This document shows, one piece after another, positions 32,327-53,529 of a stretch of 64,000 nucleotides of DNA (positions are counted from its first letter, which is position 1; every line of letters starts with the position of its first letter). The stretch is from IMG/VR virus record IMGVR_UViG_3300035190_001334, positions 81,467-145,466 of that record, one strand, 5' to 3'. A program made the position numbers and the translations under genes. The notes beneath the pieces were generated by a model that saw only the letters and a program-made list of their open reading frames with translations, did no database searches and was not told the origin of the DNA. Source of the stretch: a virus.

Positions 32327-32543
32327 GTCAGCAACCCCGCACTGAAGTGACGGGGCTTCGAGCCTAAAGCTTGGAGCCATGCTGACCAGCCTAAGTCTTA
32401 ACTGACTACGTTATTTAGGTCACGACACCTCGGAATGCTTGCTAGTTCCCCGCTCTGTCGTTTGTAATTAAACAGTTCTAAGGTCACTGGAACAGTGTTG
32501 CAAGCCTAACAAGCCTAGATAACATTGGCGAAGCAAACATTAC
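32327..32543 (+). ncRNA. omegaRNA (HEARO-type) scaffold of IscB
   Basis: GTCAGCAACCCCGCACTGAAGTGACGGGGCTT...GCTGACCAGCCTAAG...ACTACGTT...GCTAGTTCCCCGCTCTG...AACATTGGCGAAGCAAACATTAC directly upstream of iscB. Confidence 0.9.
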
Positions 32544-32562
32544 TTTTGTAGGCGACACAACC

Positions 32563-33834
32563 ATGTCAAACCAAATCTTTGTACTAGACACCAATCTCAA
32601 GCCACTGACACCTTGCAAGCCATCTATGGCGCGTAAGTTACTCAATGCAAATAAAGCTGCGGTATTCCGTCAATTCCCATTCACTATTATCTTAAAAAAG
32701 GAAGTAGTTGCTAACCCAGAACCAATTGAAATAAAGATTGATGCTGGCTCCAAAACAACGGGATTTGCATTAGTTCAAGACGAAAAAGTTATCTTTGGCG
32801 CAGAACTTAGTCACCGTGGTCAAGCCATCAAAAATAGTCTTGAATCGCGCCAATCTCTGAGACGCGGCAGACGAAATCGCAAAACTCGTTACCGTCAAGC
32901 TAGATTTTTGAATCGCACCCGTCCTAAAGGTTGGTTAGCTCCAAGCCTAGAACATCGTGTTTTAACGATTATGACTTGGGTACGCAAGTTTATTAAATTA
33001 GCCCCCATTGGTTCAATTGTTTCTGAACTTGTTCGATTCGACTTGCAACAGATAGAGAATCCTGAAATATCAGGGATTGAATATCAGCAAGGAGAACTAC
33101 AAGGCTATGAAGTACGCGAGTATCTACTTGAAAAATGGGACAGAAAATGTGCTTACTGCGGTACTAAAAATGTACCGTTGCAAGTAGAACATATTCACCC
33201 TAAATCTAAAGGCGGCTCTAACCGTATCTCTAATCTATGTCTTGCCTGTGAGCCATGCAACCTTAAAAAAGGAGTGCAAGGCATTACCGATTTCTTAGTT
33301 AAAAAACCTGATGTTTTGAAAAAAGTGTTGGCTCAAGTCAAGCGCCCACTGAAAGATGCGGCAGCCGTGAACTCTACCCGTTGGGCATTGCTCAATGCTC
33401 TCAAAGCTACTGGCTTGCCTACTAGTACTGGCTCAGGCGGTCAAACTAAATTCAATCGCTCTCGCTTAAATCTGCCTAAAACCCATTGGCTTGACGCGGC
33501 TTGTGTCGGGCAAGTTGATAGCTTGAAAGTGCTAACTAACAAGCCTTTAATTATTAAGGCAACTGGTCACGGCACTAGGCAAATGTGCAGAACAGACAAG
33601 TATGGATTTCCATCGCGCCATGTTCCTAGATGTAAATTTGTTAAAGGTTTCCAGACTGGTGACATTGTGAAAGCGATGGTCACTACTGGCAAAAAGATTG
33701 GTGAATATGTTGGGCGTATTGCTGTCCGCTCTACGGGTAGTTTCAATATCTCAGCATCAACATTGATTCAAGGTATCAGTCACAAGTATTGCAAAACTAT
33801 TCATCGCAAGGATGGCTATAGCTATGGTTTCTAA
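32563..33834 (+). CDS. iscB: IscB RNA-guided endonuclease (RRXRR, split RuvC, HNH)
   Basis: PLTPC (PLMP), IDAGSKTTG (RuvC-I), RRGRRNRKTRYR bridge helix, ELVRFD, CAYC..EHI.PKS.GG.N...NL..AC..CN (HNH), HWLDAAC. Confidence 0.95.
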   Translation: MSNQIFVLDTNLKPLTPCKPSMARKLLNANKAAVFRQFPFTIILKKEVVANPEPIEIKIDAGSKTTGFALVQDEKVIFGAELSHRGQAIKNSLESRQSLRRGRRNRKTRYRQARFLNRTRPKGWLAPSLEHRVLTIMTWVRKFIKLAPIGSIVSELVRFDLQQIENPEISGIEYQQGELQGYEVREYLLEKWDRKCAYCGTKNVPLQVEHIHPKSKGGSNRISNLCLACEPCNLKKGVQGITDFLVKKPDVLKKVLAQVKRPLKDAAAVNSTRWALLNALKATGLPTSTGSGGQTKFNRSRLNLPKTHWLDAACVGQVDSLKVLTNKPLIIKATGHGTRQMCRTDKYGFPSRHVPRCKFVKGFQTGDIVKAMVTTGKKIGEYVGRIAVRSTGSFNISASTLIQGISHKYCKTIHRKDGYSYGF

Positions 33835-48118: not shown

Positions 48119-48123
48119 CAATT

Positions 48124-48194
48124 TGGGGAGTGGCGAAATGGTTACGCGACTGCTCAACAGCAGGACTATGTAGGTTCGAGTCCTACCTCTTCAA
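48124..48194 (+). tRNA. Atypical tRNA (Gln-like acceptor, shortened anticodon loop, identity undetermined)
   Basis: TGGGGAG/CTCTTCA acceptor, D-arm GCG..CGC, GTAGG-TTCGAGT-CCTAC T-arm; anticodon arm CTGCT-CAAC-AGCAG. Confidence 0.65.
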
Positions 48195-48270
48195 TTGCGC
48201 GAATCTACCTCACTGGAGACGGACGGGTAACACCGCCTGAAAGTGTTTGAACACTAGCGCATTCATTGAC

Positions 48271-51209: not shown

Positions 51210-51500
51210 ATGAATGATACTATCAATAAAATCGCTGCGCTCATGGCAGAAGAAGAATCTGCGTGGAGAGAGTCTCAGATACTAAAAACTGCCGAGACTA
51301 CTGGAATCCTAAGCCCAACCAAGTTGGTGAAACTTGGTTGGGGTTTTGGGTTGCAACGAGATACTACCACTGGTCAAAATGTGTTGATGTGGGGTTGGAG
51401 TAATAGAGAAAATATGTTTATCGAGGAGTCGCGCTTTGAGTCGAAGGTGAAGCAGGAGTTTGAAGCTATTTGTAGAGATTCTATGAGGCGACCGCTATGA
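51210..51500 (+). CDS. Hypothetical protein
   Basis: ATG directly after the terminator hairpin. Confidence 0.55.
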   Translation: MNDTINKIAALMAEEESAWRESQILKTAETTGILSPTKLVKLGWGFGLQRDTTTGQNVLMWGWSNRENMFIEESRFESKVKQEFEAICRDSMRRPL

Positions 51501-52078
51501 ATGCAACTATGGTCGGAATTGTTTGCGAACGGTGTGGAAAAGGAAAAGAGATAAAGTTAAGTAACTATAACAAAAAACTGAAAGAGAAATCTAAATTCTT
51601 TTGTTCAATACGCTGTTCTTCAACTTTCTGGGCAAGAGATAAAGGTCTTTACGAAAACACATTAAAAAACCTTATTCTAGAAGCTAATCCAGAACCTCCA
51701 AAAGAGTCTGGAAATAAATCAAAAGCCAATTTATTCAATTACTATATCAAAATATGTAGGAACAGAAAAAATAAGGATTTTGGTATTACTGTGGAATACT
51801 TAGAAAAGTTGTGGGACTGCCAGCAAGGTAGATGTGCTGTATCTGGAATTGAATTAGAACTTCCTATAGGTACGGCAGGTTTTAAATCTGCCAGACCATT
51901 TTTTGCTGCTAGTTTAGATAGGATTGACTCTAATATAGGTTATGTGGAGGGTAATGTGCAATTTATCTGCCTAGCTGCTAATTACATGAAACATAGTTGG
52001 GATAATCAAGAGTTTTTAAACGGTTTCGATAAACTCACAAGAGAATATATCTATCTAAAGTATGGTGTAACTATTTAG
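51497..52078 (+). CDS. His-Me finger (HNH/EndoVII-like) endonuclease with N-terminal Zn finger
   Basis: CERC...FCSIRC; QQGRCAVSG...SLDRIDS..GY..GNVQ.IC..AN.MK. Confidence 0.8.
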   Translation: MNATMVGIVCERCGKGKEIKLSNYNKKLKEKSKFFCSIRCSSTFWARDKGLYENTLKNLILEANPEPPKESGNKSKANLFNYYIKICRNRKNKDFGITVEYLEKLWDCQQGRCAVSGIELELPIGTAGFKSARPFFAASLDRIDSNIGYVEGNVQFICLAANYMKHSWDNQEFLNGFDKLTREYIYLKYGVTI

Positions 52079-52100
52079 CTGTTTGTGATAGTATATAAAT

Positions 52101-52159
52101 GTTATTGAGATTACTGGAGAACTTGCAGATACGTGGGGTCGCAGCCACCACCTCCACCA
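52101..52159 (+). ncRNA. Orphan tmRNA acceptor-piece-like RNA ending CACCTCCACCA
   Basis: Same GTTATTGAGATT start as the tmRNA acceptor piece; T-arm-like GTGG-GGTCGCAG-CCAC; encoded ACCA end. Confidence 0.5.
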
Positions 52160-52193
52160 ATGCTTTGTAGCTCAGTGGTAACTAAATAAAAGT

Positions 52194-52757
52194 ATGACAA
52201 AAGGTTCGGAAGTAATAAGGAAACGCAGAGAAAAAGTTAAAAATCTTATAGTTGATTCTATGGGAGGTTCCTGTCAAGTATGCGGTTATAAAAGATGTAT
52301 AGCTGCATTAGAACTTCACCATTTAAACCCAGAAGAAAAAGATTTTTCTTTCAGTAAACTTAGGTCTAATAATCTAAATTGGTCTAAGGTCGTAGAAGAA
52401 TTAAAAAAGTGTATATTAATTTGCGCTAATTGTCACAGAGAAGTTCATAACAACTATTTAAAAATACCTGAGAATTATCAAAAATTTGATGAGAGTTTTA
52501 CTTTCGTAGGGTCAAAAAAGTCTAAAGAATACGATAGCTGTCCTGTATGTAATGAGCGCAAAGCTAAAACTCAAAAATATTGTTCAAAGCAATGCCAAAA
52601 TTCAGTGAAAAAGAACTCAGGCAAAATTAATTGGTCTTCGATAGATTTAGAAGAGCTTATCAAAGAATATAAAACTAACGTAGCTTTGGGAGAATTTTTA
52701 GGTGTTTCTGATTCGTATATAGCAAGGAGAAGAAAGGGAAATATAAAGCTCACCTAG
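52194..52757 (+). CDS. HNH homing endonuclease
   Basis: CQVCGY..C..ALELHHL.P..K.F...EL.KC..ICANCHREVH. Confidence 0.85.
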   Translation: MTKGSEVIRKRREKVKNLIVDSMGGSCQVCGYKRCIAALELHHLNPEEKDFSFSKLRSNNLNWSKVVEELKKCILICANCHREVHNNYLKIPENYQKFDESFTFVGSKKSKEYDSCPVCNERKAKTQKYCSKQCQNSVKKNSGKINWSSIDLEELIKEYKTNVALGEFLGVSDSYIARRRKGNIKLT

Positions 52758-52798
52758 AGATAGATTTTTTAGTAATCTTTATATGCTATTATTTATAA

Positions 52799-53015
52799 GT
52801 TATTGAGATTCTAGGAGTTTCCTAGGAAAGACTTGGGTTCAATTCCCAAATAGTCCATTATCAAGGGCTATAACAGGTTCTCGATTTCAGAGGAAAGCCT
52901 AGAACACGCTGAAGTTTTATGAATGGAAGCTAGATGACACAAAAACAAATGCCAAAAACCAAATCGTTAAATTCGCCCGTAAGTCTACACCTGTAGCTGT
53001 TGCAGTTTAACCACC
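52799..53015 (+). ncRNA. ssrA: Circularly permuted (two-piece) tmRNA
   Basis: Acceptor piece ~52799-52857 (TTGGG-TTCAATT-CCCAA, ATAGTCC-A); 7-nt spacer; coding piece from GGGCTAT 52865 giving G3-U70; tag AKNQIVKFARKSTPVAVAV* at 52951-53010. Confidence 0.9.
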
Positions 53016-53016
53016 C

Positions 53017-53055
53017 GAAGACCTCGTATACTTAACGGTTGCGAGGTCTTCTTAT
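53017..53055 (+). terminator. Terminator hairpin after tmRNA
   Basis: GAAGACCTCGTA...TGCGAGGTCTTC. Confidence 0.75.
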
Positions 53056-53169
53056 ATCTGGAGATAATTGAACAACTTGCGGTTTTCGCTTAATCATCCT
53101 CATGGTAGATGACTTGCCCTGCTCAACACGTTATATTACATAAGCAATCGAGCAAAACACCAAAAACAA

Positions 53170-53529
53170 ATGCCTGAACAAGAAATTAAAGAAGTCGAAA
53201 CCACAGAAACAGAAGTAGCAAGATTCCCCGTTGGTGCTACACTTGGCGCTGCGGTTGGGACTGAAGCGACACCTCCAAACGATACCGAAGAAGCTGAAGT
53301 CACGGTTATCGAGAACGAACCAATCTCCGTTGAACAGTATCGCGCACTTCTTGTATTAGGTGCAAGAGATGCACGTACCTATGCCGACCAAGTTGACAGC
53401 TTGATTGCCGAGATTGATGCTGGTAAGAAGGTGAAGGGAACAAAGTTGAACGGGACGGTGCGTAATCTGCGCCTTGAAATTCTTCGCAGTTCATTGACCG
53501 ACATCAAGACCGCTAAAGTCATCGGCTAA
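53170..53529 (+). CDS. Hypothetical protein
   Basis: 119-aa ORF. Confidence 0.7.
   Translation: MPEQEIKEVETTETEVARFPVGATLGAAVGTEATPPNDTEEAEVTVIENEPISVEQYRALLVLGARDARTYADQVDSLIAEIDAGKKVKGTKLNGTVRNLRLEILRSSLTDIKTAKVIG

Follow-up and report, generated by a model that had tools for sequence, protein, structure and literature searches.

A predicted minimal two-piece tmRNA encoded by a family of Pseudanabaena siphophages

This report concerns a gene for a circularly permuted transfer-messenger RNA (tmRNA, ssrA) at positions 52800-53055 (+ strand) of a 64,000-nucleotide (nt) stretch of viral DNA, hereafter the window, which is the last 64 kb of the 145,466-bp IMG/VR record IMGVR_UViG_3300035190_001334, rated complete by CheckV. 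The gene probably encodes a working two-piece tmRNA that depends on host factors, and it belongs to a family of eight that comprises the window, the Pseudanabaena phages Pam2 and PA-SR01, and the IMG/VR members L004, L005, L007, L099 and L100 (L101 is identical to L100 and was counted once). Since phage two-piece tmRNAs have already been published, the kind is known. What is new is a previously unreported siphophage family, its mismatch with a host order that has one-piece tmRNAs, its minimal architecture, the coexistence of tag alleles ending in AA and AV, and evidence for a module swap. Cultured and published phages, together with their uncultured relatives, would carry a ribosome-rescue RNA that has gone unreported. 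Even if none of these points were to hold, the annotation of these phages would still be corrected on sound grounds.

Anatomy of the tmRNA gene

A sequence-only reading of the window had proposed that the phage carries a circularly permuted, two-piece tmRNA with a tag of cyanobacterial type, and both this and a cyanobacterial descent of the gene are supported. ARAGORN calls a permuted tmRNA (tmRNA*) at 52767-53101, with the tag AKNQIVKFARKSTPVAVAV* named in that reading. On the + strand between 52757 and 53170 there is no open reading frame (ORF) of at least 40 codons. The parts follow each other as had been proposed, with the acceptor piece first, then a 7-nt spacer, then the coding piece (Table 1). 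The two acceptor strands GGGCTAT and ATAGTCC, which lie within 52850-52871, pair at all seven positions, and both alanine identity elements of that earlier description are present: G3-U70, formed by G52867 and T52854, and the discriminator A73, which is A52857. The pairing between the pieces through P2 was likewise recovered, as the minimum-free-energy fold contains TTCTAGG/CCTAGAA, TTTCCT/AGGAAA and GAAA/TTTC along with the T-arm and the acceptor stem. The mature pieces are expected to measure approximately 58 nt plus CCA and approximately 190 nt. Their sum of approximately 250 nt is larger than the 215 nt originally estimated, but the claim that the gene is very compact stands when it is set against the 385 nt of the host tmRNA.

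The upstream motif TGNTANNATNNANNNGTNNNTGAGA occurs twice in the window (expected 0.06), at the tmRNA gene and at an orphan copy described below, and it precedes every family member. We infer promoter function for the extended -10 element, because the sigma-70 scanner made no call there, the -35 element being absent. At the other end, the 3' hairpin is likely to act both as terminator and as 3' protection of the coding piece; the terminator scanner was silent on it because its loop is too long and its T run is weak. A helix that would sequester the stop codon of the tag (GTTAAA/TTTAAC in the window, TCTAG/CTAGA in others) was considered and rejected as covariation, because its 5' partners differ between alleles.

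Table 1. Features of the tmRNA locus in the window
Feature	Position	Strand	Sequence or remark
Second endonuclease-like gene (endonuclease VII/HNH-like)	51497-52078	+	PHROG 3322, E 7e-23; PHROG 1035, E 5e-16
Orphan copy: promoter/leader motif and a different acceptor piece	52086-52159	+	...CACCTCC-A-CCA; T-loop decayed
tRNA 5' half	52163-52186	+	..GTAGCTCAGTGGTAAC; follows the orphan acceptor piece, truncated by the next ORF
HNH endonuclease gene	52194-52757	+	PHROG 35854, E 3e-33; HH...N...CxxCH motif in the translation
Promoter-like extended -10 element	52784-52792	+	TGCTATTAT; predicted transcription start near 52799-52801
Acceptor piece	52800-52857	+	supported by fold, covariance model match and covariation; CCA not encoded
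P2 5' strands	52809-52829	+	within the acceptor piece
T-arm	52833-52849	+	TTGGG/TTCAATT/CCCAA; 5-bp stem, 7-nt loop
3' acceptor strand	52850-52856	+	ATAGTCC; within the acceptor piece
Discriminator A73	52857	+	last base of the acceptor piece
Spacer	52858-52864	+	TTATCAA, 7 nt; expected to be lost in maturation
Coding piece, 5' part	52865-52904	+	5' acceptor strand, D-loop analogue AACAGGTTCTCGA, P2 3' strands
5' acceptor strand	52865-52871	+	GGGCTAT; pairs 7/7 with ATAGTCC, including G3-U70
Region from P2 to resume codon	52905-52950	+	46 nt; candidate small pseudoknot 1 (PK1), S1 GCU/AGC, S2 GUUUU/AAAAC
Tag reading frame	52951-53010	+	resume codon GCC to stop TAA, encodes AKNQIVKFARKSTPVAVAV* (ARAGORN)
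3' hairpin	53017-53051	+	10-bp stem and 15-nt loop, then UUAUAUCU; starts 6 nt past the tag frame

Two peculiarities of the flanks may be recorded here. The 14-mer CAAAAACAAATGCC is present exactly twice in the window (52940-52953 and 53161-53174; expected 0.06), its copies spanning the tmRNA resume site and the start codon of the ORF that follows (53170-53529), and the resume region resembles the start region of the downstream gene in Pam2 and PA-SR01 as well. Relatives have a small ORF after the tmRNA—it begins MRTTCGFRF in L100 and is ATG-led with the same TTCGFR motif in L099—which in the window (53060-53110) has lost its ATG and meets an in-frame stop.

An unannotated family with a covarying tRNA-like domain

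Evidence that the structure is real comes from its relatives, all of which sit in siphophages of the Pam2/PA-SR01 type that are associated with Pseudanabaena. In Pam2 and PA-SR01 the gene occupies the same neighbourhood, upstream of an Erf-like recombinase, and GenBank has no feature there. The PA-SR01 paper reports only tRNAs, obtained with tRNAscan-SE, and the Pam paper also reports only tRNAs, citing ARAGORN and otherwise making no mention of tmRNA. The family has six different acceptor stems (GGGCTAT, GGGGGAT, GGGGGTT, GGGCGGG, GTGAGGC and GGGGCAA), each of which pairs at seven positions out of seven with G1-C72 and G3-U70 kept, and G3-U70 is found in all eight homologues. In a structure-guided alignment of only five sequences, fitted to the structure and model, 97.1% of cells pair, where shuffles give 75% and slid controls 36-57%, and 18 of the 28 pairs of the tRNA-like domain have changed on both sides, which none of 500 shuffles reached. 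The T-arm and acceptor stem are paired in 100% of cells, with both sides changed in four of five and five of seven pairs, respectively, and the U-G pair corresponding to G3-U70 is invariant in the five aligned sequences. Moreover, a covariance model built from Pam2, L004 and L007 alone matches window positions 52805-52909 along its entire length, scoring 30.9 bits there and 32.4 bits on L100. Since this model was made only from three other phages, the tRNA-like domain in the window is not a chance resemblance.

For the 3' hairpin, three stems of unrelated sequence occupy the equivalent position (the window type, L100 and L099). The spacer between the pieces is 78 nt long in L005 but 6-9 nt long in the other relatives. 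The long spacer of L005 (13622-13797 of IMGVR_UViG_3300008121_000001) holds a complete tRNA-Trp(CCA), which scores 47 bits on the Rfam tRNA model.

Standard tools detect the family poorly. At gathering scores Rfam reports no tmRNA in the window; in E-value mode the gene matches RF04321 (tmRNA_permuted) over model positions 1-213 at 43.8 bits (cut-off 47, E 2e-7) and RF01851 (cyano_tmRNA) over model positions 1-288 at 37.1 bits (cut-off 70). L100/L101 exceeds the RF04321 cut-off at 62.6 bits and reaches 67 of the 70 bits asked for by RF01851. A gathering threshold is a measure of detection, not of function. ARAGORN finds no tmRNA in Pam2, PA-SR01, L004, L005, L007 or L099, and the homologues it missed came from alignment and inspection by hand. 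MAFFT failed to align the tRNA-like domains, the three-member covariance model being used instead; a covariance search with filters off dropped L005, which has the tRNA insert in its spacer. Motif scans of IMG/VR gave few members, plus L006 and L107, which were rejected as chance matches. The loop of the 3' hairpin had no match in a scan of metagenomes. The phage-type 3' hairpin likewise had none in a scan of 185,579 species genomes, so nothing points to a prophage or to a cell as the source. No Rfam riboswitch matched the tmRNA region in either gathering or E-value mode.

Tag peptides and the case for translation

The second line of evidence is the tag, the frame of which is open in all eight homologues and varies by three length differences (3, 6 and 6 nt), all in-frame. 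The tags are AKNQIVKFARKSTPVAVAV in the window and Pam2, ANNNIVKFARKSALVAVAV in L004, AKNNICQFSRKAALVAA in L005, AKNNICQFSRKAAPVAA in PA-SR01 (C-terminal part ..FSRKAAPVAA), AKNNICRLVRKAAPVAV in L099, AAKNSIVRLVRRATLVAA in L007 and VNNIVSFSRKATPVAA in L100. Every member keeps a resume codon of the form GCN, a stop and a hydrophobic ending ..V-A-(A/V). Conservation extends to the sequence that precedes the resume codon, which is of the AAAGUAAAUGCG type and resembles that of one-piece cyanobacterial tmRNAs. The tag had been described as resembling those of Nostoc; it is indeed of cyanobacterial type but nearer to the Pseudanabaena type than to Nostoc specifically, as the C-terminal halves in L100 and PA-SR01 match or nearly match the host FSRKAAPVAA.

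These features bear on a different reading, in which the gene product is a decoy or inhibitor: its tRNA-like domain would sequester host SmpB, and perhaps alanyl-tRNA synthetase or EF-Tu, and would damp host trans-translation, with the tag translated rarely or never. Such a role would suit a phage without SmpB of its own and an RNA in which the tRNA-like domain covaries strongly and PK1 is unsupported, and it has a precedent in mycobacteriophage DS6A, whose tmRNA consisting only of a tRNA-like domain is reported to inhibit tmRNA when expressed in E. coli (PMC4131195, PMC11915505). However, a pure decoy would need neither the conserved tag frame with its in-frame length differences, nor the resume codon, stop and hydrophobic end, nor the one-piece-like sequence before the resume codon. 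We therefore find it improbable.

The sequence-only reading had pointed to an AV end in place of AA; it is present in the window, but it is not fixed in the family, in which three members end in VAVAV, one in AV and four in AA. In E. coli ssrA tags, the C-terminal Ala-Ala is the main determinant for ClpX, and engineered AAV and ASV ends lead to slower turnover. On the strength of this knowledge, it is a reasonable prediction that an AV end would be a weaker degradation signal than the Ala-Ala end of the host tag. Because the AV end is not fixed, altered degradation is plausible for some alleles only. Natural AA and AV ends in otherwise near-identical genes are a ready comparison for studies of tag-dependent proteolysis in cyanobacteria.

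Host genomes and a model for host-dependent function

Candidate hosts were reached through a mobile element. Inside the phage genome, at 32327-33834 of the window, a complete HEARO RNA (165 bits) is followed by a 423-aa IscB-like ORF, and the closest copies of this IscB, in metagenome-assembled genomes of Pseudanabaena, are 89-91% identical in amino acids; HEARO/IscB is therefore a mobile element common to the phage and the host lineage. This route led to four candidate host genomes of the Pseudanabaena lineage. A one-piece tmRNA was found in three (RF00023, 113-115 bits, 385 nt, tag ANNIVSFSRKAAPVAA) and no tmRNA above the cut-off in the fourth, and SmpB is encoded by all four (187-191 bits). 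The absence of smpB from the window, as claimed by the sequence-only reading, extends to the whole 145-kb phage genome. The partner protein would therefore come from the host, and the phage RNA would have to use host SmpB, alanyl-tRNA synthetase, RNase P and CCA-adding enzyme. Across the host order, none of 71 genomes has a cyanobacterial permuted tmRNA. The sole permuted match above threshold there (L108, G022:C11:8739-8952, 120 bits) was rejected as alphaproteobacterial; the tmRNA on contig C11 of G022 scores 210 bits on RF01849, and this contig is most likely a contamination of that assembly.

Taken together, these data lead us to the following model. A single transcript would start from the extended -10 promoter near 52800 and end at the 3' hairpin (53017-53051). 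Host RNase P would cleave before G52865, host 3'-end processing would trim past A52857 and the CCA-adding enzyme would supply CCA, which would leave two pieces held together by the 7-bp acceptor stem and approximately 17 bp of P2. The RNA would be charged by host alanyl-tRNA synthetase via G3-U70 and A73 and, with host SmpB and EF-Tu, would enter stalled ribosomes, where translation would resume at GCC (52951) and append A-AKNQIVKFARKSTPVAVAV. The likely benefit to the phage would be added ribosome-rescue capacity during infection. A two-piece phage gene in a one-piece host would also offer a direct test of whether SmpB and ribosomes of the one-piece type accept a minimal tmRNA without pseudoknots past the tag.

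Several observations weigh against a working tmRNA. First, the sequence-only reading had seen little room for the usual pseudoknots, and those that normally come after the tag are missing: the stop codon of the tag directly precedes the terminal hairpin region, and pseudoknots 2-4 are absent. Second, PK1 is important for tmRNA function in E. coli, and here PK1 is a candidate only: S1 and S2 are pairable in 94% of cells with covariation no greater than in shuffles, and RNAalifold gives a weak hairpin at most in this region. Third, the D-loop analogue carries an extra C (GGUUCUCGA vs. GGUUUCGAC). Fourth, in PA-SR01 (L003:2862-3050) and L099 (1678-1865) the P2 5' strand precedes the acceptor 3' strand by approximately 130 nt, and the canonical T-arm is replaced by a branched insert of approximately 100 nt that includes a CTGCAA...TTGCAG hairpin; their tags are intact, but without a canonical T-arm not every member need work in the standard way. 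Finally, both Rfam matches of the window copy are under the gathering threshold, simple promoter and terminator scanners called neither of the signals that we propose, the covariation alignment is small and model-fitted, and transcription, processing, charging, tagging and an advantage to the phage are predictions from the DNA.

The acceptor piece invites yet another explanation, namely that it is the 3' end of a host ssrA gene kept as a phage attachment site (attP). Integrative elements often carry 3' ends of tmRNA genes (PMC4383910). This candidate was rejected, and we hold it to be extremely improbable: no integrase was found in the phage genome, in particular no tyrosine integrase, and the phage acceptor (GACTTGGGTTCAATTCCCAAATAGTCCA) is not identical to the host 3' end (GGACGGCAGTTCGACTCTGCCCGATTCCA). 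Furthermore, the acceptor piece is succeeded by its matching 5' strand and an entire coding piece, which covary with it, and the papers on PA-SR01 and Pam2 assign neither phage lysogeny genes, which the Pam paper gives for Pam1 and Pam5 only.

Recombination at the locus

Another finding of this study is that the tmRNA gene lies at a site of apparent module exchange. Upstream of it is the orphan copy, with the same promoter/leader motif and a different acceptor piece, for which there is no pairing 5' strand anywhere in the 145-kb genome and on which covariance model R1 gives no match. The layout of this stub, followed by the truncated tRNA, aligns with L005, in which a complete tRNA-Trp comes after the acceptor piece. 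The HNH endonuclease gene sits between the stub and the active gene, and the second endonuclease-like gene is directly upstream of the orphan. From position 52904 on, the window is 91.6% identical to Pam2 and encodes the same tag, whereas the tRNA-like domains upstream of this point cannot be aligned; L007 has the reverse pattern, with a Pam2-like domain and a different tag. The permuted layout puts the acceptor strands approximately 10 nt apart, and the whole tRNA-like domain is therefore one contiguous module. This suggests that in this phage the module was replaced together with the HNH gene, the old copy being left as a stub. The locus would thereby illustrate how a permuted layout lets a homing endonuclease replace an entire tRNA-like domain in a single event.

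A locus of this kind might house a hitch-hiking gene, carried along by endonuclease-driven recombination, unselected for ribosome rescue and slowly degenerating. The orphan acceptor piece, the truncated tRNA and two endonuclease genes directly upstream mark a recombination hot spot, the small downstream ORF has degenerated in the window relative to its counterparts in L100 and L099, and the window copy falls under the Rfam cut-offs. However, the active gene has kept all 24 intermolecular base pairs, G3-U70, the T-arm, the tag frame and the 3' hairpin, in contrast to the one true remnant, the orphan, which is visibly decayed, and the part shared with Pam2 keeps 91.6% identity with an unchanged tag. 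Decay is thus an unlikely account of the gene, and a working tmRNA remains the reading that we prefer.

Relation to known tmRNAs

Two-piece tmRNAs of phages are already in the literature. Of 133 unique structures of phage tmRNAs, Buchholz et al. (2022) found 53 to be permuted (PMC9004378), and a 2025 database counts 79 phage tmRNAs. Table S1 of the former contains the cyanophages S-CAM1, S-CAM3, S-CRM01, S-SSM7, S-SSM6a, S-CBWM1 and AG-345-P14, all of them myophages recorded on Synechococcus or Prochlorococcus, and does not contain PA-SR01 or Pam2; ARAGORN confirmed several of these cyanophage tmRNAs. The genes of the listed cyanomyophages share with the window gene their phage origin, circular permutation, cyanobacterial type and short spacers; several of their tags end in something other than Ala-Ala (..SLVAAL in S-CRM01, ..AVSCA in S-CBWM1, ..ELVTA in S-SSM7), and none of those examined is annotated as tmRNA in GenBank. 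They also differ from it. S-SSM7, S-CAM1, AG-345-P14 and S-CBWM1 keep a Synechococcus-type pseudoknot past the tag, which the window family, smaller than the published forms, does not have. In addition, the host genera of the cyanomyophages have a cellular two-piece tmRNA (at the level of the genus), whereas our family is found in siphophages whose host order has the one-piece form only.

The cellular two-piece tmRNA of picocyanobacteria (RF01851) has the same order as the window gene—acceptor piece, spacer, coding piece—and shares with it P2, an acceptor stem with G3-U70, a tag of the ANNIV..PVAA type and a terminal hairpin. However, the window scores 37 bits on this model versus 158-313 for true members. 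It lacks, as do all other family members, the 5' hairpin and the post-tag pseudoknot region of approximately 60 nt found in the RF01851 type, and model inserts of 36 nt past the tag shrink to 3 nt in its alignment. Its stretch from P2 to the resume codon bears no relation to the pre-tag motif ACUGAAGCCUGCUCGG..GAGC of Synechococcus/Prochlorococcus and of the larger-genome group described below, a motif absent from all eight family members. With the one-piece tmRNA of Pseudanabaena, on the other hand, the phage gene shares a similar tag and pre-resume sequence, a CCA that is not encoded and the TTA directly 3' of the discriminator. The host RNA differs in being a single piece, in which the PK1 hairpin region is clear and the tag is followed by a long segment, and the phage gene differs in its permutation, its smaller mature size and a strongly diverged tRNA-like domain.

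The methylophage Melnitz and pelagimyophages also have a permuted ssrA, for which the authors propose action early in infection (PMC9004378). These genes resemble that of the window in being phage-borne and permuted, with a layout or lineage unlike that of the current host; the Melnitz gene is of alphaproteobacterial type with a glutamine riboswitch (PMC9004378), whereas the window gene is of cyanobacterial type.

A stripped-down permuted gene is also seen in a cell. A 2.3-Mb picocyanobacterial genome (G183), which has a normal gene as well, carries a second copy (L121, G183:C1:926930-927148, minus strand) with a 5-nt spacer, the tag ANNIKRTERTLAIAA and a terminator directly past the tag, scoring 65.9 bits on RF01851. 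The minimal layout is thus not unique to the phage family.

Origin of the permutation

The sequence-only reading held that, among cyanobacteria, two-piece tmRNA is established for the marine Synechococcus/Prochlorococcus clade, but this distribution proved too narrow. RF01851-type genes are present in 13 of 151 sampled cyanobacterial genomes, of which nine are small with Synechococcus/Prochlorococcus tags and four (G176, G109, G085 and G201, with loci L120 and L122-L124) measure 4.2-5.1 Mb, their genes scoring 158-182 bits and encoding the tag ATNNVVPFARARATVAA. Because these four (ACUGAAGCCUGCUCGGU.AGAGC) have a pre-tag region that hardly differs from the one in Synechococcus/Prochlorococcus, sequence comparison suggests that the two groups acquired the permuted gene by common origin or by transfer.

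Trees were built from permutation-neutral segments: one runs from the 5' acceptor strand to the stop codon, and to it were added the final 45 nt with the 3' acceptor strand. In these trees the phage family forms its own clade (support 99/97), the known permuted lineage and the marine phage copies S-SSM7, S-CAM1 and AG-345-P14 form another (99/99), and the phage family is placed between the latter and the one-piece sequences. In the full alignment all permuted forms are on a common branch with a support of just 73/73; they separate once the PK1 columns, which align poorly, are left out, and forcing them together costs 0.6 log-likelihood units (approximately unbiased test, p = 0.48). The trees are thus compatible both with the independent permutation raised by the sequence-only reading and with a single event. 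Identity in the tag region leans slightly towards the one-piece forms, at 72-78% versus 62-74% to permuted forms, with L007 at approximately 62% to both. It is conceivable, but on balance we doubt it, that the Pam2/PA-SR01 family owes its layout to a separate permutation of ssrA, one that took place within a phage and started from a one-piece ancestor of the Pseudanabaena type, with the tRNA-like domain as a swappable module and with phages moving permuted ssrA between distant cyanobacteria. If this were true, phage transfer would explain why Synechococcus/Prochlorococcus and the distant group with 4-5 Mb genomes have near-identical pre-tag regions.

The phage record

The virus is a freshwater cyanophage, and its closest GenBank relatives, Pam2 and PA-SR01, both infect Pseudanabaena. 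Its 145-kb record carries seven tRNA genes along with the one tmRNA. At 48123-48195 of the window, adjoining a tRNA-Met, there is a tRNA with an odd anticodon loop, to which ARAGORN assigned no identity and which scores 41.9 bits on the Rfam tRNA model. Finally, the first 30 nt of the record (G000:C1:1-30) reappear at 144238-144267, approximately 1.23 kb before its end, which corresponds to a terminal redundancy of approximately 1.2 kb despite the IMG/VR classification of the record as linear without end repeats.

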